From positions 88,779 through 152,778 of IMG/VR virus record IMGVR_UViG_2706795104_000001: DNA of 64,000 bases; one strand, 5' to 3'. This DNA is from an uncultured virus (IMG/VR IMGVR_UViG_2706795104_000001) (taxonomy: Duplodnaviria; Heunggongvirae; Uroviricota; Caudoviricetes; Herelleviridae). The notes under the pieces were generated by a model that saw nothing but the letters and a program-made list of their open reading frames with translations, did not search any database and had not been told where the DNA came from. The position numbers and the translations under genes are program-made. Positions 4,374 through 56,310 of the stretch are shown in pieces (within the stretch, counting starts at the first letter, position 1; each line of letters starts with the position of its first letter).

Positions 4374-5135
4374 ATGAAAACAGTAGATTTAAGCGTAACA
4401 GGTATGAGTTGGATGGAAGAGAGAACAATCTTATTAACACCGTATGGTAGCCGTTTATACGGAACGGACACAGAGAACTCGGATTGGGATTTCAAAGGAG
4501 TTTGTATCCCACCAAAAGAGTACTTCTTAGGACTAGAGACATTTAATGAGTATAACAACACTGGTGGTAAAACATTCAAGAACACGAAGGACGATGTTGA
4601 CATCAATATCATTCATGTAAGTAAGTTCGTAAAAGATGCTATGCACGGAGTACCGAATAACATCGAAGTATTATTTGCTAGAGAGCAAGACTATATCATC
4701 TTGACTGAACTTGGACAAGTCCTACGTGATAACCGACACCTGTTCCTATCAAAACAAATCATCACGAAGTTTGGAGGGTACACACGATCCTTAACAAACA
4801 AGCTGAAGAATGGTGCAGGTCGTCAAGAGTTAGTCGAAGAGTTTGGTTATGATACAAAGAACTTTATGCAAGGTGTACGACTACAGTTGTCTGCAATCGA
4901 AATCCTAGAAACAGGTGATTACAGTACATACCGTCCTGAGCGTGACTTCTTACTAGGATGTCGAAACGGGGAATACACTCGTGAGCAAGCACTAGCATTA
5001 GTAGAATCATATGATGAGAGGTTACAAGTAGCGCACGAGAATTCGAAGCTGCCTGAGAAACCTGACTATAACAAAATCAACGGTATGTTAATGGCTATCA
5101 ATGAAGACGCATTGAAGTTTGGTATCCACTCATGA
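4374..5135 (+). CDS. Pol-beta superfamily nucleotidyltransferase (YcgL/RlaP-like)
   Basis: GSRLYGT...SDWDFKGV signature. Confidence 0.85.
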   Translation: MKTVDLSVTGMSWMEERTILLTPYGSRLYGTDTENSDWDFKGVCIPPKEYFLGLETFNEYNNTGGKTFKNTKDDVDINIIHVSKFVKDAMHGVPNNIEVLFAREQDYIILTELGQVLRDNRHLFLSKQIITKFGGYTRSLTNKLKNGAGRQELVEEFGYDTKNFMQGVRLQLSAIEILETGDYSTYRPERDFLLGCRNGEYTREQALALVESYDERLQVAHENSKLPEKPDYNKINGMLMAINEDALKFGIHS

Positions 5136-5374
5136 GCGTAATGTACGTGTGGGACATACTGTATAAGCAAGGTGAGAAGGTAAAGTCTGTTACATTAAAT
5201 GGGATCAATCCTATTAAAGTAGTAGAGACCCTACAACGTATCCAGTACGATAAGAGTAAGAGGATAGTAGTTTACTGCGTGGATGCAGTAGGACACATCA
5301 ATAAATCGACTGGTGAGATTGTAACACTACCGTTAATGTTCGAAGGTAAGAAAGCAAAATATAGTACTAAGTAG
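5132..5374 (+). CDS. Hypothetical protein
   Basis: ORF coupled to upstream gene (ATGA). Confidence 0.6.
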   Translation: MSVMYVWDILYKQGEKVKSVTLNGINPIKVVETLQRIQYDKSKRIVVYCVDAVGHINKSTGEIVTLPLMFEGKKAKYSTK

Positions 5375-5402
5375 AGCAGGTTTCCACAACCTGTTCTTTT
5401 TT
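5373..5402 (+). terminator. Rho-independent terminator
   Basis: AGAGCAGGTT/AACCTGTTCT stem plus T-run. Confidence 0.7.
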
Positions 5403-5524
5403 CTGTTTATGGTATAATGAAGGTAACGGTATACCATTGCTTGTGAAGTCTGAAAATTCAGAATTGGAGAGATAAAAATGGGACATAGAAAATGGCAAGA
5501 AGAAATTGGACGAGGTGAAATCTA

Positions 5525-6283
5525 ATGGCTAGAAAGAAATCATTAAATATTTTTAATACAGATAGAGCATATAATATTAACTTAACTACAGTACAAGAGG
5601 AAGGTAGTTTTATTAAAGTTACACGACTAAACGAAAAAGAGATTGAACGAGAGATGGACAAGTTAAAAGAAGAGTCTACCCGATTCAGTCTACGTAACGA
5701 TAAAAAGTATCTGCTATTCAAAGAGCGATATTCGAATGACACACTATATGAGAAGGTTATTAATCACGGTGGTTACATTAAGTATTACAGTGACGGTAGA
5801 GTCCCGATCCCTGTTATCAATCAATTATCCAGTGTACCTCAATCAGAAGTTATTTACATGTGTAAGAAGGATCATAAAATTGACGATGTATTGAATGTAC
5901 AATTAGCATCTATGGCAACGAGTGTCGTAATTGATGTACCAATTGTACTTCCCGATATTAACATTTACGATTACTTATTCTCACTGTATCCTTTGCGATA
6001 CCATGTTGATAAAGTTAGGCTTTCGTTCCCTCCTTTACGAGAGGATGAGATACAGGATCGACATAAAGAGTATTACGCATTCTACAACGGTATGTATCAT
6101 CTCAAATCAGAGTATAAATACAAATGCTTCTGCTACCTACAGGAACCCTTATCTACGTGGAAAATGAATATATGGGTTGTATGTGATTCGAAGAAAGATA
6201 GAAAGATGGTAGAGGATTTAGTACTAAAAGACAACAAACGTTTTAGACGTATGGAGAATCCTTTCGTAACGGAGGGAAATTAA
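5525..6283 (+). CDS. Hypothetical protein
   Basis: 252 aa ORF with GAGGTG RBS. Confidence 0.75.
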   Translation: MARKKSLNIFNTDRAYNINLTTVQEEGSFIKVTRLNEKEIEREMDKLKEESTRFSLRNDKKYLLFKERYSNDTLYEKVINHGGYIKYYSDGRVPIPVINQLSSVPQSEVIYMCKKDHKIDDVLNVQLASMATSVVIDVPIVLPDINIYDYLFSLYPLRYHVDKVRLSFPPLREDEIQDRHKEYYAFYNGMYHLKSEYKYKCFCYLQEPLSTWKMNIWVVCDSKKDRKMVEDLVLKDNKRFRRMENPFVTEGN

Positions 6284-6284
6284 G

Positions 6285-6584
6285 ATGGTTGTGAATAGAA
6301 AAGAGATTGCAAGACGTGCGGCCCACATCGGTAACTACGACATTGGTGGGACGGAAGAACTAACAAAGATAATCGAAGACGTGATTGTTAACGCTCTAGC
6401 AAATGGAGAGAGTGTGAAGTTCGGTAAAGTATGTAAATGGGAGATCGAGGAAGTACCTAAGAAGAAAGCATATGACGGTCTAAATAAAAAGTATTTTACT
6501 AGACCAGCGAAACGCATACCGAAATACAAACCGTTAAAACGGATTACGGACATCGAGCTACCAGTACAAAAGAAAGAGGAGTAA
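6285..6584 (+). CDS. HU/IHF-like DNA-binding protein (TF1-like)
   Basis: NRKEIA, L..GESVKF, PAKRIPKYKP: HU-fold pattern. Confidence 0.85.
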   Translation: MVVNRKEIARRAAHIGNYDIGGTEELTKIIEDVIVNALANGESVKFGKVCKWEIEEVPKKKAYDGLNKKYFTRPAKRIPKYKPLKRITDIELPVQKKEE

Positions 6585-43789: not shown

Positions 43790-44209
43790 GTGAGTGAAGT
43801 GGCAGAGAGCTGGCTTACATGTGGTGGGGATCAGCAATGGATGTCTGAAGCAGAGTATATGTACATGAACGAAGACATTACGATTGAGCCTTTCGAAGAC
43901 GAGGACTTAGAGGAGCAGGATAGAGTAAAGCGTGACAATGCAAGTAAGCTAATCAGGAAGTTAGCTTTGTACGGTAGACGTATGAAAAATAGTGGTGTGG
44001 TTGTACTAGACATATTATGTCTCGATGAGTTAGTAGTTCTTGCCGATAGTGCCGCAGAAGAAGGTACGTACAATAGGAAGTATATTCGTTCAGCTTTTGA
44101 TGTTGTCCACGGTAAAGCACATTACCTGTCACTTCAGAAGAAACGTTTAGTATTAATGGGGTTTATCAGACCTTATGTAGATATTAAAGTATTAACATTT
44201 TCGGAATGA
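43790..44209 (+). CDS. Hypothetical protein
   Basis: ORF fills the gap; start may be GTG 43799. Confidence 0.65.
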   Translation: MSEVAESWLTCGGDQQWMSEAEYMYMNEDITIEPFEDEDLEEQDRVKRDNASKLIRKLALYGRRMKNSGVVVLDILCLDELVVLADSAAEEGTYNRKYIRSAFDVVHGKAHYLSLQKKRLVLMGFIRPYVDIKVLTFSE

Positions 44210-44221
44210 GGAGGAATAACA

Positions 44222-44716
44222 ATGGAGAAGCTTAAAGAAGGACAACTAACACCTTATAAAGACAAACACGGTAGAATCATCGCAATAGGTGAAAGAGTCG
44301 AGTTAGAGGGTTGTGAGTTCGATGTAATCCAAAACGATTTTACAAATGAAATTGTAATTGACGGTGATACAGGTCAAACGGAGCTACGTATGGTGGCGCA
44401 CATGTGCGAAGTTATATTTTACTCCGAACTAGGTAAGCAAACTTTGCTTAACGAGAAAATAGATATCGTTTTAAGTAACAAATATAAGGACGCAGATGAC
44501 GTTCTAAGGAACATTTGGGAGCTGAAGAACAAATTCGTAGCTAAATGCGGTTTTAGATTAATGCCAAACACAGTATACTTAGGGGAGAACCTAGTTACAT
44601 TACTAAATGACAACCACCCGTTTACTGATCGTGTAGTAGATGTATTCGGTATGAGTATCGTAGAAGTACTAGACACTGACCATGTATCACTAGGTCTTAC
44701 GTTGGAAAAGCACTAG
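44222..44716 (+). CDS. Hypothetical protein (YopX-like N-terminus)
   Basis: GQLT.YKDKHG..I..GE.V resembles the YopX motif. Confidence 0.6.
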   Translation: MEKLKEGQLTPYKDKHGRIIAIGERVELEGCEFDVIQNDFTNEIVIDGDTGQTELRMVAHMCEVIFYSELGKQTLLNEKIDIVLSNKYKDADDVLRNIWELKNKFVAKCGFRLMPNTVYLGENLVTLLNDNHPFTDRVVDVFGMSIVEVLDTDHVSLGLTLEKH

Positions 44717-44740
44717 AGCGCACAGACGCTCTTTTTTTTT
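44715..44740 (+). terminator. Rho-independent terminator
   Basis: AGAGCG/CGCTCT plus T-run. Confidence 0.8.
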
Positions 44741-44808
44741 ATACCTACATCGTCCGATCCGTAACCTATATGATACGCTGTAACTTATAAAAAAATTACA
44801 AAATAGTG

Positions 44809-44838
44809 TAGACAACCACTAGAATCCTATGCTACACT
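44809..44838 (+). promoter_or_regulatory. sigmaA-type promoter for the sigma-factor operon
   Basis: TAGACA-N18-TACACT with TG extension. Confidence 0.6.
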
Positions 44839-44883
44839 GATTACAGATAAGTTATCTAGAATAACTCAGGGAGTGGTAGTAGC

Positions 44884-45654
44884 ATGAATAAGAAAAGGGC
44901 AGGTAGCACTTACACCTTCGCCAAAAAGGTACTCACAAAGGAAGAAACATATGAACTAATTGAGAGGTCACAAGCAGGAGAGGAGGAAGCAACAGAATCA
45001 TTAGTCGAACACAACGCTCGACTTGTCACTTATGTAGTAAGACGAAAGAACAATCCGTATCACGAATATGACGACCTGTTTCAATTAGGAATGATTGGAT
45101 TAATAACTGCTATAGCGAAGTTCGATACTTCAAAAGGACTACAGTTTTCCACTTATGCGGTCCGATGGATTGACGCAGAGATTGGCAACTACTTGAAGAA
45201 CAGAACTTCTATCTTAAAGGTTCCGAGGGAGATCGGTGCAATCGTTAATAAAATCCTTGCAGTTAAGTTGAAGAACGAGGAACCAGCTATTATAATGGAG
45301 AAGCTAAAGTTAGATGCAAGTCAGTTAGATAACGTCACGATTGCTTTAGAGATTATACACAATGAAGTCATTAGTTTGGACAAGCAGACAGGAGAAGAGA
45401 AAGATGACTCACTATCTTCAATTGTTGGACAAGATGTTAACCAAGACTGGTTCTCAGGTTTAGCATTTTACGATATTATTAGATTCCTAGACGATAAGGA
45501 ACAATCCGTACTTACATTAAAGTACGTTCACGACATGTCCAGTAATAAGATTGCAACATTGTTCGGTACATACGCAAATAAGATATCTCGATTAGAGAAA
45601 GTGGCTTTAGACAAACTACGAGAGCGTTACACATACGAGGAGTTGATAAATTAA
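44884..45654 (+). CDS. SigF/SigG/SigB-like sigma factor 1
   Basis: LVEHNARLV, DDLFQLGMIGL..AI.KFD, FSTYAV.WI.AEI, LKVPR, ISLD, ISRLEK.AL. Confidence 0.9.
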   Translation: MNKKRAGSTYTFAKKVLTKEETYELIERSQAGEEEATESLVEHNARLVTYVVRRKNNPYHEYDDLFQLGMIGLITAIAKFDTSKGLQFSTYAVRWIDAEIGNYLKNRTSILKVPREIGAIVNKILAVKLKNEEPAIIMEKLKLDASQLDNVTIALEIIHNEVISLDKQTGEEKDDSLSSIVGQDVNQDWFSGLAFYDIIRFLDDKEQSVLTLKYVHDMSSNKIATLFGTYANKISRLEKVALDKLRERYTYEELIN

Positions 45655-45663
45655 AAATAGGGA

Positions 45664-46425
45664 GTGGGAGAAATGATATTATGGAAGGTAAGAGGTATTG
45701 AACTAACTCGGGAAGAAACAATCGAACTTGTGAAAGAAGCTAGAGCAGGATCAGAGGAAGCAAAAGAGAAAATTATACTTGGTTATAAAGGTATGGTGTA
45801 TACATTGGCTAAACGGTTCAGCAGAAGCAAACAACACGAGTTCGAAGACATGTTTCAAGAAGGGTTGACTATCTTATTAGAAGTAGTGGACAAGTTCGAT
45901 ATCGACTCAGGTTACGCATTCAGTACGTACGCTTATCCATTTGTCTTCGGCAAGATGAACAACGTTCGCAAACGGTACAATCCTATCAAAATATCAGCAC
46001 ATATTACCGATATTATTTCGAGGATTAGAAAGTATAAGCTAACGGATAGAAGTGAGAAGGAAATATACGAGTTCCTTAATAAAGAGTATGAATTAAAATG
46101 GGTTCGAGCTGCACTTGAGTACATGCGTAGAGGTAAGGTTCTAAGCCTTGAGAAGACTTTTGCCGAGGATGAGGAGAGTGACTGGGCCGCAACATTGAAG
46201 GAGGTGGTGTCCAAGGACGCTAACGGTGATTGGGAGTTGATGATGGACATTAAAGGATGTGTACCGAGTCTAACATCTTATGAGCAGTATGCGTTCTGTG
46301 AGCACATTCTAAAGGATAGAATGCAGTCAGATATCGCAGAGGAGTTAGGAGTAAAACCACAGACAGTATCCAAGCATGTTAATAAAGCATGTAGAAAAAT
46401 TAAATTAGAACTAGGAGGAGTTTAA
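45664..46425 (+). CDS. SigF/SigG/SigB-like sigma factor 2
   Basis: EDMFQEG, DKFD, FSTYAYP...G, LSLE, Q.DIAEELGV.PQTVS. Confidence 0.88.
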   Translation: MGEMILWKVRGIELTREETIELVKEARAGSEEAKEKIILGYKGMVYTLAKRFSRSKQHEFEDMFQEGLTILLEVVDKFDIDSGYAFSTYAYPFVFGKMNNVRKRYNPIKISAHITDIISRIRKYKLTDRSEKEIYEFLNKEYELKWVRAALEYMRRGKVLSLEKTFAEDEESDWAATLKEVVSKDANGDWELMMDIKGCVPSLTSYEQYAFCEHILKDRMQSDIAEELGVKPQTVSKHVNKACRKIKLELGGV

Positions 46426-46426
46426 T

Positions 46427-46918
46427 ATGTCAACAACTTATGAAACATTTGAAAGCAAAAAGCAAGCAGCTATTAAATTATTACAGGAGACAACACTCAC
46501 TCTACGAGAGATTGGGGAACGTACTGGTCTTTCAGCAGGTACAGTAGGATCGTGGTCGAAGGAACATCGTCCTGCACATATTTCTAAACGAAATCAACGT
46601 TTAGGGTCACTAAAAGGCGCAGAGACTACTCGGAAGATACTAGCAGGTAGACCTAGAGGTAAAAAAGTTAATGTGGTTCTTCCGAATATCGGAGACTTTA
46701 AGGAAGATGACGAGTCTACAAATGTGGTTATGTCAGTCGATACAGAGACGAGCATAAGCAACGATCCGTTCGACTTCCATTTCAGTATCAATGCGTCCGA
46801 AGCTAATATAGATAAAGAGGAAGCCGTATCCCGACTACGTAGCGCACTAGAAATCCTAGAAGGTCTTCCATCGTCAAAAGTATCGCTAAACTTATCAATT
46901 AATAAAGGGGAAAAGTAA
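46427..46918 (+). CDS. HTH-domain protein
   Basis: TLREIGERTGLSAGTVGSW. Confidence 0.75.
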   Translation: MSTTYETFESKKQAAIKLLQETTLTLREIGERTGLSAGTVGSWSKEHRPAHISKRNQRLGSLKGAETTRKILAGRPRGKKVNVVLPNIGDFKEDDESTNVVMSVDTETSISNDPFDFHFSINASEANIDKEEAVSRLRSALEILEGLPSSKVSLNLSINKGEK

Positions 46919-46919
46919 C

Positions 46920-47180
46920 ATGGAAAACAAAACACCGAATTACCTTGTATGGGATGTTGAAGAAGTATCAAGTGTGTGCAGTCCCGAGGAGATGCAGATG
47001 CTTAACAACGTCATCGACAAAGTGCTACAAGCAAGGTTACAAAGGGGACAATCTAATAACGTACAGTACTTAGTAATCCCTAGCTTTAAGCCGTACTACC
47101 GTCCAATCTCAGAGATGTTAGGACTTATACAAGCTTCTAACAACCAAGGATATATGAAAGGATACAATGATGCAAACTAA
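46920..47180 (+). CDS. Hypothetical protein
   Basis: AAGGGG RBS. Confidence 0.7.
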   Translation: MENKTPNYLVWDVEEVSSVCSPEEMQMLNNVIDKVLQARLQRGQSNNVQYLVIPSFKPYYRPISEMLGLIQASNNQGYMKGYNDAN

Positions 47181-47211
47181 CTTCCGATATTTTTTCGGAA
47201 GTTTTTTTTTT
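47179..47211 (+). terminator. Rho-independent terminator
   Basis: AACTTCCGA/TCGGAAGTT plus T-run. Confidence 0.85.
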
Positions 47212-47216
47212 CGTAC

Positions 47217-47272
47217 AGGCAACTTTCTCCACGTTTACCCATATCATTTAACTAAGTAATACAAAATAACAC
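47217..47272 (+). promoter_or_regulatory. Putative sigmaK-like or phage-sigma promoter plus operator repeats
   Basis: AGGCAAC-N16-CATATCAT then GTAATACAAA-ATAACAC; same layout at 53509-53578. Confidence 0.55.
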
Positions 47273-47306
47273 TTCCTCACACAGAGGAAAACAGGAGGTA
47301 ATACTT

Positions 47307-48404
47307 TTGATTACAAATAAAACAATCCGTTTGAACCCACAACCTGATAGTCTTTCGGTAGCTGCTTTAGATGATGGTTTCGGTGATATCAAATATGACT
47401 ACAACGGTTCACCATTATTAATCCCATCATTCGTAATTCCTTACAAACCAAAACCAAAGGATGACTTCTCCACTGGAAGTAAGTTAGAGTACATCGCATG
47501 TGAAGTAGACGGTAGAAGATACGTAGTCGGTGATTACGCAATTAAAATGGGAACAAATGTTGACTGGATCGGTGGAGAAAATAAGCACCTGGATAAACGG
47601 TTCCCGATAATGTTTAAGACCGCACTAGCTAGGATGGCACGAGGGGTGCAGGAGAGAGTATATACACTCATGATGAACCTTCCTATTAAAAACGATACGG
47701 CAGAGCGCAGAAAGGCTCTAACCAACCTTGTACGAAATACACATGAAATATCCATATCTTACGATGGTGTGGAGTTCATGCCAAAGATAATCACAGTAGA
47801 AGATGTAGTTATCAAGAAGCAACCTTTTGGATCGTTATGCGATGTCATGCTAAACAATGACGGAGAAATCATCGACCACGATGTAGCAAAAGGATTCGTA
47901 GTTCTAGTTGATGTAGGAGCAAGAACACTAAATATTCTGACAGTTGATGGATTAGAGGAACAACCTGAACTGACTACACATACAAACAACGGAATGTTTC
48001 AAGCGTATACGGCAGTTAGTCAGTATCTAGAATCGTCTCACGGAATTATGGTTCCTGATGGAAAGCTTCCTATGATAATGAAATCTAAGGAAATACGAAA
48101 CATGGATATTACAGACCTAGTGAATCAGGCATACGAGAACCACGCCAACACGATCCTAAACGTACTTGATAAACTTTTAATCGACTCATATGGGTTTGTA
48201 ACTACAGTGATATTTACTGGTGGTGGCGCAGAGCTAATGAAACCACACCTGGAAGAGAAATACAGAGGTACTAACATTCGTACACTGTTCCTAGATAGAT
48301 ATGCAAACGCAAGAGGACTTCGCAAGTACGGTATACGTTCTGCAAAGAAGCAACAAAAGAAAGGGATTAACATTCACGTAGGGGGTAACTCTTATAACGG
48401 ATAG
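47307..48404 (+). CDS. parM: ParM/StbA-family actin-like ATPase
   Basis: DDGFGDIK, QPFG, VDVGART, FTGGGA, ANARG actin-fold motifs. Confidence 0.9.
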   Translation: MITNKTIRLNPQPDSLSVAALDDGFGDIKYDYNGSPLLIPSFVIPYKPKPKDDFSTGSKLEYIACEVDGRRYVVGDYAIKMGTNVDWIGGENKHLDKRFPIMFKTALARMARGVQERVYTLMMNLPIKNDTAERRKALTNLVRNTHEISISYDGVEFMPKIITVEDVVIKKQPFGSLCDVMLNNDGEIIDHDVAKGFVVLVDVGARTLNILTVDGLEEQPELTTHTNNGMFQAYTAVSQYLESSHGIMVPDGKLPMIMKSKEIRNMDITDLVNQAYENHANTILNVLDKLLIDSYGFVTTVIFTGGGAELMKPHLEEKYRGTNIRTLFLDRYANARGLRKYGIRSAKKQQKKGINIHVGGNSYNG

Positions 48405-48417
48405 GGAGGAGGTTTGA

Positions 48418-48741
48418 GTGAGACAGTCATTATATCTTAGGGAGAGATTAGATGCCGATATCTTAGATGTAGTAGAACCGTTAATGAAGCACGCAAGCTT
48501 TGCACACGTAATACGAGAACTGATCCGAGATGGTATAAAGTACAGAGCGATGCAGAAGAGTGGAGCTATGTATGAGAAAGTAACACAAAGTAATCCAGTA
48601 TCGAAACCTTATAAACCAAAGGCTTCAGGAGTGAAGTATGAGAATATACCACAAAGTAATACAAAACCATTAATGAATGTGCAAATTAAGAAAAAGGAAC
48701 TATCAAAACAGGAAATCGAGAACAAATTAGATGCATTCTAA
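48418..48741 (+). CDS. Ribbon-helix-helix ParR-like adaptor
   Basis: RQSLYL..D.DIL...VIRELIRDGI directly after parM; GGGAGGAGG RBS. Confidence 0.7.
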   Translation: MRQSLYLRERLDADILDVVEPLMKHASFAHVIRELIRDGIKYRAMQKSGAMYEKVTQSNPVSKPYKPKASGVKYENIPQSNTKPLMNVQIKKKELSKQEIENKLDAF

Positions 48742-48748
48742 ATCCATC

Positions 48749-48851
48749 TTACCCGTATTACCTAATTACCCAATTACCCACGGGTAAGACGTAATTACCC
48801 ACTAATTACCCACATTTATGAGTATGTTATTTCCGAGGGTAATTAGGGTAA
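48749..48851. repeat. (AA)TTACCC direct and inverted repeat array, candidate centromere or origin
   Basis: About 6 direct copies (48749-48811) and 3 inverted GGGTAA copies (48782, 48837, 48846). Confidence 0.8.
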
Positions 48852-48904
48852 AATCAGTCGTATCAAGGGTTTTACACGGGTCACACGAAATTCATCTTTC
48901 CCAG

Positions 48905-49066
48905 TCAATCAATAACACGAAAATCATGCAATACAGTAAGGATTGTGTAAAGTTGCTCCATGTTAATATCAATTTTCTTCTTCTCCTTAATTTCTTGAAG
49001 AACTAGATGGTCAATAAATTTCATTTGCTTTTCGTAACGATACTCACTATCTGTACTGAACCACAT
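48905..49066 (-). CDS. Small antisense-strand protein (53 aa, not in ORF track)
   Basis: AAAGGAGG RBS 9 nt before ATG; MWFSTDSEYRYEKQMKFIDHLVLQEIKEKKKIDINMEQLYTILTVLHDFRVID. Confidence 0.7.
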   Translation of the reverse strand: MWFSTDSEYRYEKQMKFIDHLVLQEIKEKKKIDINMEQLYTILTVLHDFRVID

Positions 49067-49151
49067 TCTTCGCTTCCTCCTTTATAGTTGAATCATTAAG
49101 TTACCTGTAGTATTGCCAAATAAAAAATAAATATACATGGAGGTTTTAAAA

Positions 49152-49337
49152 ATGGGTATTTTGACAACTGGTGTTTCAATCGTGGTTATGTGCTCGGCAG
49201 GTATTGCAGTCTCTACTGTATTTAAATGGTTACACAATTACGAGTTCAATATCGGTAAACCGAATAACGGATCGCGGTCGGGCGGAAATGACCGTATTAG
49301 CAGTTTGAATGACCGAGTTAAACCAGGCAACCGTTAA
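49152..49337 (+). CDS. Small single-TM protein
   Basis: GGAGG RBS; N-terminal hydrophobic helix. Confidence 0.7.
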   Translation: MGILTTGVSIVVMCSAGIAVSTVFKWLHNYEFNIGKPNNGSRSGGNDRISSLNDRVKPGNR

Positions 49338-49369
49338 TAATAGAAGGTAACTATAAAGGAGGAAGTAAA

Positions 49370-49903
49370 ATGATAAACGTAAACTTAGGTGCTAAAAATT
49401 TGGATAGTCAAGTGGAATATGTACCATTTAAGAAGGTAGCAACTATTACTGAGGAGCCAAGTTTTTTAGTCGAAAACGTAGTGAGGGAGGTGACGGAAGC
49501 AACAGAAGGTCGCAAAGTAAAGAAGGTACGCAAATTGAAGAAACTGGTAAAGGTTTCACTGTCCGTATTGGCAGCAAGCATCAACATCGCTCCGAGAGCA
49601 ATGGCATCGGGAGTAACTGGGGGAACACCACTTCTATCTCCGCTAACACCTGCGGTCGTAATGGAATGGGGACTACAACTAGCGTTCATAGCAGTAGCGG
49701 CAGGGGTTGCAGTAGCAATGGTTACACTTACAACAGCAGGGGTATACAGAATGCTCAGAAAGAAACAGGAAGCCGATGCATGGAGCCAAGACATTCTAAA
49801 GGGACTAACGCAAGTACTCATAAGCGTACCAAGCATTTACCTTCTTTACTACTTGGCGAAGTTACTCTTCCAAAACTTAAACTTCTTAAAACTAGCCTTA
49901 TAA
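49370..49903 (+). CDS. Membrane protein with signal-like segment and VirB2/TrbC pilin-like helix pair
   Basis: KKLVKVSLSVLAASINIAPRAMA, then TM-RKKQEADAWSQDILKG-TM; family call is pattern-based. Confidence 0.55.
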   Translation: MINVNLGAKNLDSQVEYVPFKKVATITEEPSFLVENVVREVTEATEGRKVKKVRKLKKLVKVSLSVLAASINIAPRAMASGVTGGTPLLSPLTPAVVMEWGLQLAFIAVAAGVAVAMVTLTTAGVYRMLRKKQEADAWSQDILKGLTQVLISVPSIYLLYYLAKLLFQNLNFLKLAL

Positions 49904-51057
49904 AATGTGCAAAGGTTGCAGTCATTCCTCTAGCTACAGTTTCTACATTCTTCTTGACTTCCGTAACTGACAGAACATATGCGGCCGTAACTGATATGGG
50001 TACCGATCCGAACTCTTTCTTCTCAGGAAGTAAGGGTAACATGTTCCAAGGTGTAACAAACTTCTTTACAGGTAAAGTGCAGGAGACATTGATTCCTGAT
50101 CCGATACAAGAGATTATTAATTGGTTCGGTGAATTTATAAAACTGATTAAGGAACTACCTGTAAATGTAGGTCATATGTCGGCAGACCTTATGGCTTGGG
50201 TATACGAACTATGCGGGGATTTAATCTTGAAGACACCACTGTGGTTATTCAGTAACGAATGGTTCACGAATATGACTTTACTATTTAGCTCAGTGGCATT
50301 AGGTGCAGTTGCAGTCCTAACAGTTATCGAAGCAATCAAACGAATGTTCACAGGAGTAAAAGATGGAAGACGACCAATGGTAAAAGCACCGATGGAATTT
50401 AAAACAATCATTAAAAGATGGGCAGTCGTAGCAGGACTAACAACAATCGTTCCATTCCTATTCCAAAAAACATTCCAACTTCTGAATTATATATCCGATA
50501 TACTCATAGGTATGAACGGTAAGACAATGACAACAACTGCTCTATCGGAAACATTCGGTACACTGGATATTATAGCTCTCCTAGCATTCGATGCAGTACT
50601 GATTGGTACAGTAATCCCTGTACTGTGGCAGAACGGACGTAGATTTTTCGACCTACTGGTTTTGGGGATCACTGCTCCATTAGCACTAGGTGCTTGGGTA
50701 TTCGATTCGAAACGTCACCTATTCGACCAATGGTGGAAGAACGTAAAACATCTATCACTTGTTCAAGTATATCACTCTCTATTCCTACTTGTATTAGGTT
50801 GGTTCATATTCGGTATCCCTACACCTGTAGACTTCACAGGTACAGTCATCAAGTTATTAGTTGTAATCGGTGGGTTTGCTCGTATGCAGAATCCTCCGAG
50901 ACTGATAGCGCAACATTTAGATAGTGGTGGAGGACTCGATGAGATTACGAAGAAACCACTTAGAGGAACAAGACAGAAAATTCTGAGTAACTTTGCTTTC
51001 TCTAAGAGTGCAGTTATGAGTCCGATTAATTTACTGAAAAAGATTAAAAAGAAATAG
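49780..51057 (+). CDS. Polytopic membrane protein, VirB6/TrbL-like
   Basis: At least 6 TM; RRFFDLLVLGITAPLALGAW...FDQWW....LVQ resembles TrbL/VirB6; start uncertain. Confidence 0.6.
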   Translation: MEPRHSKGTNASTHKRTKHLPSLLLGEVTLPKLKLLKTSLIKCAKVAVIPLATVSTFFLTSVTDRTYAAVTDMGTDPNSFFSGSKGNMFQGVTNFFTGKVQETLIPDPIQEIINWFGEFIKLIKELPVNVGHMSADLMAWVYELCGDLILKTPLWLFSNEWFTNMTLLFSSVALGAVAVLTVIEAIKRMFTGVKDGRRPMVKAPMEFKTIIKRWAVVAGLTTIVPFLFQKTFQLLNYISDILIGMNGKTMTTTALSETFGTLDIIALLAFDAVLIGTVIPVLWQNGRRFFDLLVLGITAPLALGAWVFDSKRHLFDQWWKNVKHLSLVQVYHSLFLLVLGWFIFGIPTPVDFTGTVIKLLVVIGGFARMQNPPRLIAQHLDSGGGLDEITKKPLRGTRQKILSNFAFSKSAVMSPINLLKKIKKK

Positions 51058-51068
51058 GAGGAACTACC

Positions 51069-51185
51069 ATGAGTATGACAACGGCAATTATCATTTTGAA
51101 TACGACTATGCTATTGACAAACGCTACGGTGAATGCGATTCAGAGTATTTTATTATACAAGGAGTTGAAGAGACGTGTGGACTAA
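51069..51185 (+). CDS. Small hydrophobic protein (38 aa, not in ORF track)
   Basis: GGAGG RBS; MSMTTAIIILNTTMLLTNATVNAIQSILLYKELKRRVD. Confidence 0.6.
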   Translation: MSMTTAIIILNTTMLLTNATVNAIQSILLYKELKRRVD

Positions 51186-53496
51186 AACGAAGGGAGCGAA
51201 GAACATATCTAACTATTTCTCCATTGTAGAGGATATCGGTAAAGCATTTGAACAGATTATGAATGCAGATACAGAAGGTATATTCGGTCTAGAACTTCAA
51301 TTGTATCCAGGAGGGAGAAGTCTTGTTCTAGTCTCTCCTCCTAGTCTTCGGATCGGAAACGGAATTAGTCCTCGTCAGACGCTCGTAGAGGGCAATACAG
51401 ACGACTTATCCTATTATGAGGGTTATTTACTCGAACCTAACTTCCTTCCACTGTACGGGGCTTATAAAGGTGCCTTGCTGAATGAACTTACTTCTATAGA
51501 ATTGAAAGGAGGTGAAATCATTGAATTGCAGTGGCTGCTCCGTAGACGGTACGACAATTGGAGACCGAATGCAGTAGCAAGATATAGCAGTTATTTAGAA
51601 GGTAATGACTATCCGTTGCAGTCTAATCTCGGCAGAGGTCTCCAAACGAAAATTCTGAAAACTCTAAACAAGATAGCTTCCTTCGAAACCAAGAGACCAT
51701 ATATCCAAGAAGTAGAAAATAAAATTGTAGACGAAGCATACCAATTCCAGTTACGATTGGTCGTCCGTTCTAAGGAGCCTAAGAGCCTTGTACAGAGCTT
51801 GGATAACGTCCTAAGCAAATACGACTCGTATAATGCTCTCCGACTTTATAAACGAAAGGAGCGTGGGATAAAGCAGGAATACACGGATCGTATCATGACA
51901 GGAGATACGGACACACAAATATTAAGTAGGACAGAGCTTGTATCCTTATTCGGTGGGACCGCAATAGAAGTTACACCAGTACAACCAGCCGTAACCGAGA
52001 AACAGTTAACGGACTATAAAGTGACCGAGGTTAAGACCGATGGAATAATAGCTCTACTGCCACAGTATGATAGGGAGAAGGTTGAAGCAGACGAAGGATT
52101 AATCACGAAACTGGCTGAAGCAATGAAACGAGTTGGGTTAATTAGTCAAGCACGTCTAACAAATAGTTCTATCACTTCAGGTATCAGGCTCACGGTTATC
52201 CAATGTGATATACCGAAACAAAAGACATTGAGCCACATTGTAGGTAAAGCAGTCGATATACAGGCCGCACTTGGAGTTGTATCTTTAAGCGTTGAACAAG
52301 GGAGCACGGCAGACACAGTACGATTCACGATCCCAAACGAAGTTCCTTCTATAATAGGATTACGAGAACTACTCGAAGATGCACGGTTCCATGAGTATGC
52401 TCAGGACGCAGTACTACCTTTCATTGTAGGAGTGAATGAAATAGACGAACCGATATATCTGTCACTCGGGAAGCTTGTACATTTGATGATTGCAGGGACT
52501 ACGGGTTCAGGTAAATCGGTATTCGTAAATACACTTATTATTTCACTACTGGCTACGTACCCACCTGATTTACTTCGCTTCTATATGATTGATCCGAAAC
52601 TGGTAGAGCTTAGTCACTACAAAGACTTACCACACGTAGAACACGTTGTTACAGACATGAGGAAAGCAGCGACCATGCTCAGTAAACTGGTACAGGAGAT
52701 GGAACGGAGATACGCTATGTTCAGCGAGAACGGGGTAAAAGGTATCAAAGTGTATAACGAGAAAGTAGAAAAGAAAATGCCGTATATCGTCTGTGTAGTG
52801 GATGAGTATGCAGATTTACGGGACACAAACCCTGAAGTTGAGGAATTTATTGTTAGGTTAGGACAAAAAGCGAGAGCTGCTGGGATACATCTAGTCATCG
52901 CTACACAGAGACCAAGTGCAAATATTATCAGTGGTCGAGTAAAAGCGGTCATACCGAGTGCAATAAGCTTCAACCTTAACTCTAATACAGACTATAAAAC
53001 CGTATTCGGGAAAGGGATCGGAAATACGAAATTATTAGGACGTGGGGATGGGATCATGAGGATAGAAGGTTGGGAGAAGGAGTTCCAACGCTTTCAGAGT
53101 TCCATTGTAAGCCCCGTAGAGTCCCGTGAGGAGCAAGTATACAAGGACATAATAGATTACTTCTCCAATACGAAAAGCGTCCCATTAGACGTTCAGAACC
53201 CTATTATAGAAGGAGTTGTATTTGACGGAGATATAGAACTTGAAGAAGGGGATATAGAACTGGACTACGATATCATCACAGAAGAGGACTTATTAGAGAA
53301 GTTAAAAGGCGTTATAGCACGTACGAGAGAAACAAGAGTTGCAGAGCTACGCAAGTTAATGAAGATTAAAATGAATGTACTATCTGAACTCATGAATAAG
53401 TTAGTAGAAGAAGGTTGGTTAGTGAAGCACCCGTCTAGGGCTAAAGGTTATGAAATATCCATAGATGAGTTGACATTGGCTCGATACAAAAAATAA
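51175..53496 (+). CDS. FtsK/SpoIIIE-family DNA translocase
   Basis: HLMIAGTTGSGKS, MIDPK.VEL, EMERRY, VVDEYADL, RAAGIHLVIATQRP, LLGRGD; C-terminal winged-helix-like region; no N-terminal TM. Confidence 0.93.
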   Translation: MWTKTKGAKNISNYFSIVEDIGKAFEQIMNADTEGIFGLELQLYPGGRSLVLVSPPSLRIGNGISPRQTLVEGNTDDLSYYEGYLLEPNFLPLYGAYKGALLNELTSIELKGGEIIELQWLLRRRYDNWRPNAVARYSSYLEGNDYPLQSNLGRGLQTKILKTLNKIASFETKRPYIQEVENKIVDEAYQFQLRLVVRSKEPKSLVQSLDNVLSKYDSYNALRLYKRKERGIKQEYTDRIMTGDTDTQILSRTELVSLFGGTAIEVTPVQPAVTEKQLTDYKVTEVKTDGIIALLPQYDREKVEADEGLITKLAEAMKRVGLISQARLTNSSITSGIRLTVIQCDIPKQKTLSHIVGKAVDIQAALGVVSLSVEQGSTADTVRFTIPNEVPSIIGLRELLEDARFHEYAQDAVLPFIVGVNEIDEPIYLSLGKLVHLMIAGTTGSGKSVFVNTLIISLLATYPPDLLRFYMIDPKLVELSHYKDLPHVEHVVTDMRKAATMLSKLVQEMERRYAMFSENGVKGIKVYNEKVEKKMPYIVCVVDEYADLRDTNPEVEEFIVRLGQKARAAGIHLVIATQRPSANIISGRVKAVIPSAISFNLNSNTDYKTVFGKGIGNTKLLGRGDGIMRIEGWEKEFQRFQSSIVSPVESREEQVYKDIIDYFSNTKSVPLDVQNPIIEGVVFDGDIELEEGDIELDYDIITEEDLLEKLKGVIARTRETRVAELRKLMKIKMNVLSELMNKLVEEGWLVKHPSRAKGYEISIDELTLARYKK

Positions 53497-53508
53497 ATGT
53501 TGGCTAAA

Positions 53509-53578
53509 AGGAAACAATTTAGTTCTAACCTCATACAATGAGCCATAGACTATAACATGTAACACAAAGTAATACAAA
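53509..53578 (+). promoter_or_regulatory. Putative sigmaK-like or phage-sigma promoter plus operator repeats
   Basis: AGGAAAC-N16-CATACAAT then GTAACACAAA-GTAATACAAA. Confidence 0.55.
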
Positions 53579-53601
53579 ACAAAAATCGGGAGGAATTACT
53601 T

Positions 53602-54286
53602 ATGAAAAACACAACTAAAAAAATCGCAATTGGTGGAGCAGTAGTAGCATCATTATTAGTAGGAGCACTTGGTGGAGCAGCAGGAGCAAGTTCATACTTA
53701 AATGACAATACAGTGGATTTAGTATCATTTTAAACAGTGGAGTAACGAGCTTACGGATAAAGTAGTTAAGAAGAATGGTACAATTAAAGACTTACAGGCT
53801 TCTGTAGCTAACCTTGAGAAAGCAAACAAAGAGTTACAGGATTCAAATACACAAAAGGATGCTCAGATTGAGAAGTTGAATGCAGAAGTTACTGCTTTTA
53901 CAGAACAGGTTAAAGTCCTTCAACAAGATATCGCTAATAAGAATATGACAATTGATAAGTTGACTGCTTGTATTGCAGAACTAGAGGGCAAAGTAAAAGG
54001 ACTACAGGATAAAGTAGATGGTCTTGAGAAGAGTAATGCAGAGAAGCAAGCAATTATTGATAACTTGACTGCAACATTAAAAGCTACAGAGCAACAACTT
54101 AAAAATACACAGGTTATCTTAGCACAAACGAAAAAGGAACTTGATGCTGCTAATCAAGCAGGAAAAGATAAGGATGCAAAAATTGCTAACTTAGAAGCTA
54201 AATTGAAAGAATACAGTGATGAAATTAATACATTGAAACCACTTCAAAAATCACAGGATCAGAAAATCAAGGACTCAGAAAAATAA
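53602..54286 (+). CDS. Membrane-anchored long coiled-coil protein interrupted by a +1 frameshift at TTT-TAA (53728-53733)
   Basis: GGGAGG RBS; MKNTTKKIAIGGAVVASLLVGALGG; the +1 frame is open from 53732 into ORF 53876..54286. Confidence 0.7.
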
Positions 54287-54292
54287 CATGTC

Positions 54293-54320
54293 AGGGGAAT
54301 CCATTACGGGTTCCCTTTTT
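54293..54320 (+). terminator. Rho-independent terminator
   Basis: GGGAATCC/GGGTTCCC plus T-run. Confidence 0.8.
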
Positions 54321-54502
54321 GCTTGTCATATTTTAAACCCTTGATACATAAGGGATACTTGAACATTTATTTAACTTTTTGTCCTATTTAAATTATAAGT
54401 GGTCTGTATTTATAATTATTATATTTATTATTAATAATAGTAATGTAGTTATAATAGTATTTAATTAAGATAGACGATCCGAAAAAACTTTTAAAATAGT
54501 TG

Positions 54503-54531
54503 TTGACTTATAGAAAACCACGTTATATACT
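54503..54531 (+). promoter_or_regulatory. sigmaA-type early promoter
   Basis: TTGACT-N17-TATACT. Confidence 0.8.
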
Positions 54532-54578
54532 AAGGTCAGAAAGTTAAACAAGCCAAACGAAATACAGGAGGAGACGTA

Positions 54579-54863
54579 ATGGGTAACGTTAAACTGATGT
54601 TAGATGGTAAAGTAATTGCTGAAGCCACAAGTATTAGTACCGAGGTTACAAAAGGTATGGAAGAAAGTAGAACTGAAAACGGAGGAGAGGGAATTACTTG
54701 GGTGGAAGCCTGTGAGTTCATCTCCAAATACCTCAAAGAAGCTCATCAAATAGAAATGACAGGAGAGCAAGTGTTTAACGCTTCTCCGACTGGGGAACTG
54801 TTCCACGTATTCTACTTATACAACCAAGCAAAAGCGTATTACGCTTGGAAGGATAAGCAGTAA
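54579..54863 (+). CDS. Hypothetical protein
   Basis: AGGAGG RBS. Confidence 0.7.
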   Translation: MGNVKLMLDGKVIAEATSISTEVTKGMEESRTENGGEGITWVEACEFISKYLKEAHQIEMTGEQVFNASPTGELFHVFYLYNQAKAYYAWKDKQ

Positions 54864-54948
54864 TGAAGGTATTAATCATCGTAGCAATAGTGTTAGTAGC
54901 TTCTTGGATCGTAACGGATATTACAGAACATTAAAAGGAGGTGCAGTG

Positions 54949-55071
54949 GTGAACGTCAGAGTATTCTTCAAACAAGGCGGTTACACAGAAGTACTTGTTC
55001 ACAGTCTTAGTGAACTAGAGAGCAAGTACGGGTACGGTTTAGGTCAGATTTCAAGATTAGAAGTTTTATAA
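54949..55071 (+). CDS. Small hypothetical protein (about 40 aa)
   Basis: AAGGAGGTG RBS, GTG start. Confidence 0.55.
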   Translation: MNVRVFFKQGGYTEVLVHSLSELESKYGYGLGQISRLEVL

Positions 55072-55089
55072 AAAAAAATTAAAAAGTTA

Positions 55090-55118
55090 TTGACTGTTAG
55101 ACAACAACGTAGTAAACT
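55090..55118 (+). promoter_or_regulatory. sigmaA-type promoter
   Basis: TTGACT-N17-TAAACT; a second TTGATT-N17-TACAAT lies at 55175-55203. Confidence 0.65.
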
Positions 55119-55235
55119 AAGGTTAAGAAATACAGAGAACAAGCACTATAACTTAGTAAAAAATAAAATTAGCATTGATTTCCAGTTAACTCCTTGATAC
55201 AATAGTTGTAATCAACTAAGAAAGGGGAGTTAACA

Positions 55236-55412
55236 ATGAATGCGAGTAAGATATTGCTAGGATGTGTAGTAACGATTGTCTTGTTCCTACTCTTCATGTT
55301 CATCATCATGTTCGTACCTTGGGCTTTCCCACTAATCATCATCGGTGGTATCGTCTTTGGAACTATGGCAGGATGGCATTACGGAGGTAGAAATAGAGAC
55401 AACGATAACTGA
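55236..55412 (+). CDS. Small membrane protein (58 aa)
   Basis: AAGGGGAG RBS; very hydrophobic. Confidence 0.65.
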   Translation: MNASKILLGCVVTIVLFLLFMFIIMFVPWAFPLIIIGGIVFGTMAGWHYGGRNRDNDN

Positions 55413-55428
55413 AGGGAGGTGAAACCTT

Positions 55429-55503
55429 ATGGTAAACCAAAACGTTGAGAACGGAGTTTACGAGATTACTAAGTTGTTAGCTGACGCTAAAGCAGGTAAG
55501 TAA
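55429..55503 (+). CDS. 24-aa peptide
   Basis: GGGAGGTGA RBS; MVNQNVENGVYEITKLLADAKAGK. Confidence 0.55.
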   Translation: MVNQNVENGVYEITKLLADAKAGK

Positions 55504-55715
55504 TGATTACGGATCGTAGGAAGGAGGTGGTACATGTGGAAAAATACATAAATTTACCTGGTGATGAACCAATGAAAACTCCATTCGAGTATGCAGTAGG
55601 TGAGGTTATCCGAGTGAATAATAACAGGCCGCATAAGTGTTACAAGAAGGAAGTGAAGGACGGGAAGCTATTCCAGTACTTCAAAGAAGGACGAGTAGTT
55701 GTAGTATGGGATTAA
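55503..55715 (+). CDS. Hypothetical protein
   Basis: Start may be GTG 55536 after AAGGAGGTG. Confidence 0.6.
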   Translation: MITDRRKEVVHVEKYINLPGDEPMKTPFEYAVGEVIRVNNNRPHKCYKKEVKDGKLFQYFKEGRVVVVWD

Positions 55716-55726
55716 AGAAATAAAGG

Positions 55727-55912
55727 GTGATAGAGATGTTGGCAACGGAGAAGATACAGAAAGCAAAGGAGTATTTAGAGCAAGCCGAACAATGTATCAA
55801 AGAAGATAACAAACGATTGGCAGTAGGTAACTTGGATCATGTGAAAGATAATGTGTTTGGGGCTATCTATCTACTAATTGCGGAAGTAATCGAGGAGGAG
55901 GGAGATTACTAG
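55727..55912 (+). CDS. Hypothetical protein
   Basis: ORF within operon. Confidence 0.6.
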   Translation: MIEMLATEKIQKAKEYLEQAEQCIKEDNKRLAVGNLDHVKDNVFGAIYLLIAEVIEEEGDY

Positions 55913-56310
55913 TGGAAAAGTACACCTTCGGGTTTAAAGAAAATTGGCGTGACTTCCTAGACTTAGCAGAACGCACTGTGTCTAAGGACTACTGGTGGGG
56001 AGACCTATACTTCCTGTATCACGAGGATGACGGGGAAGATGCTTATGTATTCACGAGTACTGATGAGATTGACGACTGGTTAGAGAAGACGTTTTGGGAC
56101 GGGTGCCACTATGAGTCCAGTGATATAGAGACATCTATGGATGAGTTCAAGATATGGAAGTTAGTGTCCGAATCAGATGTAAAGAAGTTCACGTCCCTTT
56201 ATAAGGGTGCAAAAAGGACAAGCTTAGTAGTTGACGGTGAGACGTACTATAGAACACCTGTATCAATATGCGTAGAGCAAACAATACTTGTATCAACGAG
56301 TAGTTACTAA
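55912..56310 (+). CDS. Hypothetical protein
   Basis: GGAGG RBS, GTG start. Confidence 0.7.
   Translation: MEKYTFGFKENWRDFLDLAERTVSKDYWWGDLYFLYHEDDGEDAYVFTSTDEIDDWLEKTFWDGCHYESSDIETSMDEFKIWKLVSESDVKKFTSLYKGAKRTSLVVDGETYYRTPVSICVEQTILVSTSSY

Follow-up and report, generated by a model that had tools for sequence, protein, structure and literature searches.

What controls the DNA-segregation genes of a Bacillus phage described as lytic, and where on its DNA would their products act? We considered this question in a 64-kb window (the whole stretch of DNA analyzed), which makes up the right-hand part of one virus record (152,778 bases) and comes from a Caeruleovirus-type Bacillus myophage. Within the window, an actin-like motor gene and a small gene for a candidate adaptor protein follow a promoter-like site (P1), a similar site (P2) lies further downstream, and four pairs of short boxes (O1 to O4) accompany the two sites and occur within the adaptor gene itself. 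The best overall explanation, to which we give about an even chance, is that P1 and P2 are promoters of a non-sigmaA class and that the boxes are operator and centromere sites for the adaptor. Here, we infer adaptor binding of the boxes, repression, centromere function and sigma identity. The features that carry the argument are, by window position:

47217..47247, + strand: promoter P1, AGGCAAC-N16-CATATCAT
47256..47272, + strand: box pair O1, GTAATAC-AAA-ATAACAC, at about +1 to +17 of P1
47307..48404, + strand: actin-like segregation ATPase gene, ParM/Alp type
48418..48741, + strand: candidate adaptor gene, 107 amino acids (aa)
48580..48596, + strand: box pair O2, GTAACAC-AAA-GTAATCC, within the adaptor gene, encoding VTQSNP
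48646..48662, + strand: box pair O3, ATACCAC-AAA-GTAATAC, within the adaptor gene, encoding IPQSNT
53509..53539, + strand: promoter P2, AGGAAAC-N16-CATACAAT
53559..53575, + strand: box pair O4, GTAACAC-AAA-GTAATAC, at about +12 to +29 of P2

Two promoter-like sites and four box pairs

Both promoters and all box pairs had been proposed in a first-pass annotation, and every one of its coordinates was exact. It had also seen no TTGACA-type promoter at either site, with which a sigma-70 consensus scan of 44000-56000 agreed: 24 sites were called where shuffles predict 32.2, and the + strand had no site in 47181-47306 or 53497-53601. The pattern AGGNAAC-N15-17-CATANNAT had two matches in the whole 152,778-base genome, P1 and P2 (stated spacer N16), and the window still had two when one mismatch was allowed (shuffle mean 0.36; 5/100 shuffles reached 2). 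As this pattern and those used for the boxes were written from the sites themselves, clustering, position and conservation are the stronger arguments. Regarding position, P1 and P2 are each preceded by a terminator or stop codon and followed 3' by a ribosome-binding site. The two translation-initiation regions (47293-47309 and 53587-53604) are also alike, AGGAGGTAATACTTTTG and GGGAGGAATTACTTATG.

Regarding conservation, a 7-kb stretch around the module had matches in 25 Bacillus phage records and in one record under another host name. The closest were phages Hobo and BM15 (96.4% identity, 100% of the query), followed by Bc431v3 (91%) and by JBP901, Deep Blue, BCP8-2 and others (~87%). The relatives' fetched records are classified as Herelleviridae, Bastillevirinae, Caeruleovirus, with the exception of CM1, a record without taxonomy; further loci were fetched through the adaptor protein (8-sequence alignment). 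In 11 Caeruleovirus sequences, the terminator before P1, CGTACAGGCAA and CCCATAT are kept, and the 16 intervening bases vary in sequence, not in number. The terminator is invariant in 11/11 of these sequences and is annotated as such in Bc431v3. The same layout was found in Tsarbombavirus (TGGCAAC-N16-CATATCAT), in Goe8 (AGACAAT-N15-CATATACT) and in the loci fetched via the adaptor protein (AGACATA-N16-CATAAAGT and AGGCAAT-N15-CATAAGAT, among others). Considering 41 loci from several genera, which gave 33 distinct upstream regions of the actin-like gene, 25/33 fitted NGDCAWN-N15/16-SWTANNNT, with a spacer of 15-16 nt and variable sequence. The 8 misfits were Deep Blue, Eldridge and locus L044, which have GTGCAA(G/T), and five regions of loci L029 and L032-L035, which are arranged differently. 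Two kept blocks whose distance is fixed, with a terminator on one side and a ribosome-binding site 50-90 nt away on the other, amount to a promoter signature, and on this comparative evidence P1 is conserved across Bastillevirinae. The earlier claim of non-sigmaA promoters gained from these results, as both sites look real and correctly placed and P1 is kept far beyond the phage of the window.

P2 resembles P1 but, judging from the aligned relatives, is a Caeruleovirus addition and is confined to that genus. Over its 105-nt intergenic region, 84% of the alignment columns are invariant among the 11 Caeruleovirus sequences; the first 300 nt of parM reach 83%, and the final 300 nt of ftsK 53%. 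The Tsarbombavirus sequence that follows ftsK lacks the boxes, and a ~13-nt insertion lies between its equivalents of the -35 and the -10; this broken promoter spacing without boxes suggests that boxes and promoter travel together. The region equivalent to P2 in Goe8 is unrelated. Three features surround P2:

51175-53496: FtsK/SpoIIIE-like gene, in which Pfam found no FtsK gamma domain
53602..54286, + strand: putatively P2-driven gene for a signal-peptide/coiled-coil protein (phrog_4876), 227 aa in relatives
54293-54317: terminator after the coiled-coil gene

The first-pass annotation had taken P1 and P2 for a regulon linking both ends of the module, a view that three points fail to support. 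First, P2 would drive only one gene, frameshifted here, and not the FtsK operon. Second, neither Tsarbombavirus nor Goe8 has P2 or its boxes. Third, neither motif occurs in the membrane-protein/FtsK operon between P1 and P2. The frameshift that splits the coiled-coil gene is an extra T in a TTTT run at ~53727; the gene is intact (227 aa) in Hobo and Bc431v3, and relatives' contigs have one letter fewer at 53728. The frameshift may be real, or the extra T may come from a sequencing error in the homopolymer.

A weight matrix made from 11 P1-family instances found no third P1-type site in a scan of the genome (P1 scored 32.4; the next match, a coding site, 15.1; P2 14.8). P1 and P2 are distinct from the genome's two other upstream motif classes, TTGTTGAC and TATATTA, which were obtained by plain k-mer enrichment, a bipartite k-mer enumeration over 90 upstream regions having been too insensitive. 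The first class, TTGTTGAC(T), combines an extended -35 with a sigmaA-like -10 in 16 upstream regions, and the motif has already been described for Bc431v3 (PMC3601020, excerpt). The second, (C)TATATTA, has no obvious -35 and occurs in 13 upstream regions; it may hold late promoters, and an SPO1 gp34-like late sigma has been reported in Bc431v3 (PMC3601020, excerpt). Our literature search, which did not cover the supplementary promoter table of Bc431v3, found no paper mapping P1, P2 or the boxes, and the GenBank features of Bc431v3 mark no promoter at P1 or P2 in the fetched stretch.

The boxes had been described as tandem 10-mers: GTAATACAAA with ATAACAC at 47256-47272, GTAACACAAAGTAATACAAA at 53559-53578, and in-gene pairs at 48580-48599 and 48646-48665. 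The sites and their copies stand, and a genome scan for GTAAYACAAA gave 5 matches, all on the + strand and all within 47256-53578 (window shuffles: mean 0.79; 1/100 reached 5). The unit itself is better read as paired 7-bp palindromes, GTAWYAC, that lie 10 bp apart from centre to centre with AAA between them. Written as RTAHYAC-N3-RTAHYMC, the pair has four matches in the window, exactly the four sites (shuffle mean 0.23; 0/100 reached 4), and the strict form GTAWYAC-N3-GTAWYAC is found only at O4 in the whole genome. Single GTAWYAC boxes are common (135 in the genome, compared with 98 +/- 11 in mononucleotide shuffles), so only pairs and clustering are informative.

Between phages, GTAATAC and GTATTAC alternate at one position, and GTGTTAC is found where others have GTAACAC. 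In both cases these are the two strands of one palindrome, GTA-W-YAC, and the alternation of GTAATAC and GTATTAC fits a symmetric dimer that ignores the central base pair. The first O1 box, GTAWTAC, follows P1 in 11/11 Caeruleovirus sequences, and the second O1 unit, ATAACAC, is weak and poorly conserved; an extra GTAATAC (47298-47304) follows the Shine-Dalgarno sequence and precedes the TTG start of the actin-like gene. At least one GTAWYAC box was present in 31/33 distinct upstream regions of this gene, always 3' of the -10 where one was recognizable. As far as their placement tells, O1 (at about +1 of P1) and O4 sit at operator positions. The boxes lie just 3' of each -10 and are nearly exclusive to the module, which supports this part of the first-pass interpretation.

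Candidate readers of the promoters and of the boxes

Directly upstream of P1 is an operon that contains obvious candidates for reading it:

44809..44838, + strand: sigmaA-like promoter with extended -10 (TAGACA-18-TACACT, TG present), 9/12 matches in a consensus scan, ahead of the sigma operon
44884-45654 and 45664-46425, + strand: two adjoining sigma-70-family genes (Pfam Sigma70_r2, E 1.2e-16 and 2.2e-10)
46427-46918, + strand: open reading frame (ORF) with a region-4-like helix-turn-helix (HTH), phrog_8794 'sigma factor', near the end of the sigma operon
46920-47180, + strand: 86-aa ORF, last in the sigma operon
47179..47212, + strand: strong intrinsic terminator (47179-47203 plus a T-run), 9-bp stem, closing the sigma operon before P1

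The two sigma genes are the genome's only region-2 matches. Their best NCBIfam matches were to SigF/SigG models, with 132 bits (cut-off 311) for one and 85 bits (cut-off 234) for the other; the curated cut-offs for SigF/SigG equivalogs are also given as 311-457. The proteins are diverged factors of the SigB/F/G group, and they fall far below every equivalog cut-off. Likewise, the sigma factors of 13/13 related genomes match TIGR02980 only below its cut-off. A SigB/F/G-like sigma gene lies a few kb upstream in 17/18 genomes with the module. In Tsarbombavirus, the second sigma is annotated as one ~570-aa ORF (4812-6524 of locus L017; 831-2540 of locus L018); its counterpart in the window is a 253-aa sigma followed by a 163-aa region-4-like ORF, and the longer ORF may be a fused form.

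The first-pass annotation had instead assigned P1 and P2 to host sigmaE and/or sigmaK, with the module on only in sporulation and under ParR-like repression. The reported consensus sequences are MWCM-16-CATANNNTD for sigmaK (PMC9562818, excerpt) and TYATATTT/KCATANANTN for sigmaE, GNATA/CAWAMTA for sigmaG and GTATA/GGNAANAMTR for sigmaF (PMC3416734, excerpt). The -10 half of the assignment stood: the -10 elements, CATATCATT in P1 and CATACAATG in P2, both fit the sigmaK CATANNNTD at 9/9 positions, and that of P2 also fits the sigmaE KCATANANTN, P1 being without the A at position 7. The -35 half did not, as at 16 nt, the consensus spacing, P1 has CAAC and P2 has AAAC, both without the invariant C of MWCM, and TYATATTT is unmatched. 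At 15-nt spacing the -35 of P2 reads AACA, which does fit MWCM; the module also holds sporulation-flavoured genes (SpoIIIE/FtsK-like, SigF/G-like), and the SPO1 ParM has been discussed with regard to spore entrapment (PMC12991052, excerpt). Against a sporulation-only module, the 'AC' of the -35 is replaced by AAT or ATA in Goe8 and in loci L042, L044 and L036-L043, AC plus CATA---T holds little information, the phage's own sigmas lie directly upstream, and relatives' sigmas are, by annotation, forespore-like and not mother-cell-like. We consider this model fairly unlikely.

The -35 block kept across genera is (GTAC)AGRCAW, with drift in the last bases (AAC, AAT, ATA); the 'AAC' that resembles the -35 of extracytoplasmic function (ECF) sigmas is not conserved. 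As far as we are aware, the consensus sequences of sigmaH, sigmaB, sigmaD and ECF factors (AAC/CGT) do not fit P1 or P2 either. We favor the phage sigmas over host sigmaK/E because the -35 fits no sporulation sigma, the sigma genes are directly upstream, and diverged phage sigmas hardly affect host sporulation genes (PMC9429907, excerpt). In the close relative Bcp1, the homologous genes bcp25,26 are reported to block sporulation, and Bcp1 forms lysogen-like derivatives (PMC2716549, excerpt). We would put reading of P1 and P2 by one or both phage sigmas at roughly even; reading by host sigmaK/E is a lesser possibility, reading by sigmaA with an activator is unlikely, and another factor is quite unlikely.

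For the boxes, the candidate reader is the 107-aa protein. The actin-like gene next to it matched Pfam ALP_N (1.2e-17), MreB-like_C (1.5e-29) and Alp7A_like_C (1e-5) and scored 87 bits against the NCBIfam ParM equivalog, whose cut-off is 417, so the motor is an Alp-type relative and not R1 ParM itself. Its homologues were found in 163 phage records, 158 of them from Bacillus phages. The adaptor gene begins 14 nt beyond the end of the motor gene, and all relatives share this synteny. Its product has no Pfam or NCBIfam match and belongs with phrog_3536, a family of unknown function; a profile run against 1.84 billion representatives yielded 45 relatives with E values of at most 0.001.

The first-pass annotation had called this protein a ParR-like ribbon-helix-helix (RHH) protein. 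AlphaFold2 (AF2) with a 42-sequence alignment predicted residues 1-12 as extended and helices at 13-22, 28-48 and 97-106, with a predicted local distance difference test score of 87-95 over the first 50 residues; with 7 sequences only, the N-terminus was helical at low confidence. The predicted layout is strand-helix-helix over 1-48, followed by a disordered linker that carries two V/I-x-Q-S-N repeats and by a C-terminal helix with LDxF at its end. The beta-alpha-alpha topology expected of an RHH protein (~45 residues) thus stands as a prediction, and a significant sequence or fold match to RHH proteins was not found. In Foldseek, 5/6 listed matches of the model were RHH proteins (CdbA, NikR, CopG), at E 1.8-9.8. 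A sequence-profile search of the PDB gave chance matches to Bcl-xL only (E 0.19 or worse), and the best ESM Atlas score, 0.81, was below the meaningful level. The strand that would read the DNA, R-x-(S/T)-(L/V)-Y-(L/I), is conserved across the 42 family members, with R2 and Y6 near-invariant and S or T at position 4 in most of the rows listed, and MRQSLYLRE is identical in the window's Caeruleovirus subgroup and in Tsarbombavirus. This constancy matches that of the GTAWYAC box and contrasts with the lineage-variable array downstream of the adaptor gene. The model suggests that an RHH-like N-domain fits a ParR-like, operator-binding adaptor.

The downstream array is the basis of a different proposal, in which the boxes are bound by another phage protein (such as the HTH ORF at 46427-46918) or act in the mRNA, and the adaptor uses the array as its centromere. 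The array, at 48749-48853, contains CTTACCCG, TAATTACCCA four times on the + strand and an inverted GGGTAATTAGGGTAA, and all 4/4 copies of TAATTACCC in the genome, counting both strands, lie within it. Such a short-repeat array directly follows the adaptor gene in every lineage, with a lineage-specific unit (TTACCC in Caeruleovirus, TTTCCC/ATTCCC in Tsarbombavirus, GTTTCCC in Goe8, ATACCC in Eldridge). The proposal also has in its favor that all four box pairs are on the sense strand within transcripts, that the orientation of the AAA spacer is constant, and that the adaptor lacks a significant RHH match. On the other side, a palindrome with a freely flipping centre points to double-stranded DNA read by a dimer, and the adaptor strand and GTAWYAC stay constant between Caeruleovirus and Tsarbombavirus while the arrays differ. 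The centromeres of known type II partition systems overlap the operon promoter, which also counts against the array. At the RNA level, a search of 46800-54400 against Rfam (E up to 1) gave no match, and the P2 leader has no stable fold, shuffled sequences folding just as well (z 0.06 and 0.58); in the P1 leader there is a single hairpin, 47272-47290 (z -3.5), which is not kept in all relatives. On balance, we regard a different reader of the boxes as rather improbable.

P1 and P2 could also be sigmaA promoters that have a good -10 (TATCAT, TACAAT) and no usable -35, with a phage activator on AGRCAW, as at T4 middle promoters. The last six -10 bases match TATAAT at 5/6 positions in each promoter, TAnnnT is kept in all P1 variants, and GTACAGRCAW could be the activator's site. 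However, CA (mostly CCA) before TAnnnT is kept in 12/13 compared lineage variants, and sigmaA does not need this CA, which is typical of the CATA-type -10 of the sporulation family; neither promoter has a TG extension, and no activator was identified. This reading is unlikely, and phage-sigma reading of P1 and P2 remains the one that we prefer.

Box copies inside the adaptor gene

O2 and O3 belong to a 30-bp duplication in the coding sequence (YEKVTQSNP / YENIPQSNT), and the V/I-x-Q-S-N motif they encode is conserved across the adaptor family (42 members, 28-73% identical to the query). The nucleotide sequence is more constant than the protein motif requires. Among 15 aligned genes, minority codons make up 8/154 of the motif codons compared with 215/997 elsewhere (not corrected for relatedness), and the O3 stretch CCA CAA AGT AAT ACA AAA is unchanged in 12/15. 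Q-S-N is spelled CAA AGT AAT in about nine diverged lineages, including those with proteins only 37-50% identical, although the codon usage of this genome predicts this spelling with a probability of only 0.065 per instance, and AAT is the less used Asn codon (0.37). The residue that precedes Q varies (T, P, L, I) while GTA..AC persists. In loci L024, L025 and L035, Asn is replaced by Ile (AAT to ATT) and GTAWTAC is kept; this change is radical for the protein, yet only flips the neutral centre of the palindrome, which argues for selection on the nucleic acid. From these codon patterns, we conclude that the in-gene boxes are under nucleotide-level selection. That the in-gene copies are instead a by-product of a duplicated V-x-Q-S-N and codon bias, with only the promoter-proximal boxes functional, is improbable: the motif is protein-conserved in family members 29-50% identical, the two copies arise from the 30-bp duplication, and CAA, AGT and ACA are among the commoner codons, but against it stand the improbable CAA AGT AAT kept across those lineages, the use of AAT, the N-to-I changes that keep the palindrome, and the residues before Q that vary while GTA..AC persists.

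Taken together, the locus might work as follows. The sigmaA-like promoter at 44809-44838 would transcribe the sigma operon, ending at its terminator, and a non-sigmaA holoenzyme, most likely with the SigF/G-like phage sigma(s) encoded there, would fire P1 and P2. P1 would give a bicistronic mRNA for the actin-like motor and the 107-aa adaptor, and P2 the mRNA of one secreted coiled-coil protein. Dimers of the adaptor N-domain would bind the paired boxes side by side; bound boxes would block polymerase at +1 to +30, with autorepression of P1 and co-repression of P2 as the outcome, and the in-gene pairs and O1, bound alike, would form a centromere handle. The actin-like filament would then grip the adaptor's C-terminal helix and move the complex.

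Several observations weigh against this account. SIOphi keeps P1 and the box and has no detectable sigma gene, in a record labelled partial. Two P1-type promoters in a genome are few for a dedicated sigma. GTAWYACAAA counts in the module and in the genome are 4/4 in Bc431v3, 5/6 in Deep Blue, 5/8 in JBP901, 3/5 in Emiliahah and 1/5 in Goe8, so the exclusivity of the 10-mer is a Caeruleovirus feature. The sense-strand placement of every box copy makes an RNA-level role conceivable, and the array at 48749-48853 may be a second, rival centromere or a loading site for the FtsK-like translocase. As V/I-x-Q-S-N is conserved in the protein, part of the in-gene conservation is protein-level, and the linker DNA as a whole (~48570-48680) is somewhat less variable than that of the N-domain.

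A broader conjecture, which we offer tentatively and think more likely wrong than right, is that Bastillevirinae myophages carry a self-contained DNA-segregation regulon, with phage sporulation-type sigmas, private promoters (AGRCAW-N15/16-CATAnnnT), in-gene boxes and a partitioned episome. If so, the only phage targets of this private promoter class would be the motor/adaptor operon and, in Caeruleovirus, the secreted coiled-coil gene, and the 'QSN' protein motif would be largely the shadow of a DNA site. A nominally lytic phage could then hold on to its genome, or position it, as a partitioned episome, for instance in carrier states or during entry into spores.

Surroundings of the module and known systems

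The module runs from the two sigma genes through the region-4-like HTH ORF, the 86-aa ORF and the terminator to the ParM/Alp gene and the 107-aa gene. These are followed by the TTACCC-type array, a small minus-strand ORF, 3-4 membrane-protein genes, the FtsK/SpoIIIE-like gene, the coiled-coil gene and its terminator. At the array position, directly after the adaptor gene, JBP901, BCP8-2 and 0524phi7-1 have HNH endonuclease genes on the opposite strand. The inserted genes are:

L003, 3264-4139: HNH endonuclease gene
L009, 3263-4138: HNH endonuclease gene
L018, 4419-4934: HNH endonuclease gene

Part of the stretch is contained in 20 listed RNA runs, of which the four examined consist of contigs only. 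Two soil metatranscriptomes from different studies contain the same 10,734-letter contig of a ~93%-like phage, at word depths of 163 and 92, and ~18 further RNA runs have the same word share of 0.15-0.17. The contig (window 46916-53742) runs across terminators and intergenic regions; for an RNA library, this points to DNA carry-over or a common source and not to a transcript.

Among known systems, the type II partition loci are the closest in organization. In ParM/ParR/parC of R1 and pSK41, Alp7A/Alp7R/alp7C of pLS20 and AlfA/AlfB/parN of pLS32, a motor gene is followed by a small adaptor gene, as it is here by the candidate adaptor gene, and short repeats about one helical turn apart lie at the locus's own promoter, also as here. 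Autorepression and centromere function, which go together in those loci, would be the expected consequence, and the C-terminal tail or helix of the adaptor is likely to bind the motor, as may be the case for the 107-aa protein. The differences are considerable. The type II loci are plasmid-borne, whereas this one is in a ~153-kb myophage described as lytic; there are only 1-2 box pairs at the promoter, other pairs are inside the adaptor coding sequence, and a second promoter, 5 kb away, has one more; the promoter is not of sigmaA type; and no relation in sequence is detectable between the adaptor family and ParR, Alp7R or AlfB.

AlpC/AlpA of the Corynebacterium glutamicum prophage CGP3 is likewise a phage actin with an adaptor that binds upstream of its own operon and links viral DNA to filaments. 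It differs in protein family and host phylum, and CGP3 is a prophage; we know of no in-gene sites or dedicated sigma genes in that system. For the boxes, omega of pSM19035 and MetJ offer a likeness, as their RHH dimers bind side by side and cooperatively to 7-8 bp boxes, and omega is, as proposed for the adaptor, repressor and centromere binder in one protein. Box sequence and spacing differ, and RHH membership here comes only from the predicted topology.

For the promoters, the middle-promoter consensus of SPO1, AGGAGA, may be set beside the AGRCAW of P1 and P2. The promoters of sigmaK and sigmaE share with P1 and P2 the -10 CATANNNT(D) and a spacer of 15-16 to an A/C-rich -35 (PMC9562818 and PMC3416734, excerpts), but the -35 here is AGRCAW and not MWCM/TYATATTT, and the phage encodes SigF/G-like sigmas of its own. 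Homologous sigma genes lie in the same neighbourhood as the actin-like gene in Bcp1 (bcp25,26) and Eldridge (g168/g169) (PMC2716549 and PMC9429907, excerpts), and gp28 adjoins the ParM gene 27.9 in SPO1 (PMC12991052, excerpt). The excerpts of these phage-sigma studies deal with effects on the host and assign no phage promoter to the diverged sigmas. Diverged SigF/G-like sigmas are widespread in Bacillus phages, and P1 offers a concrete candidate target that is conserved across genera. The module (motor, adaptor, membrane proteins and FtsK/SpoIIIE-like translocase) is an obvious candidate for Bcp1 carrier states and spore entrapment, and the proposed operator/centromere sites would make the function of the segregation module testable, as P1 would the promoter specificity of the phage sigmas. 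In the in-gene boxes, one would have a clear example of a coding stretch constrained mainly by a DNA-binding site for its own product. By analogy, the locus would work like a type II partition locus, but with its own promoter class, in-gene sites and a second, distant operator.

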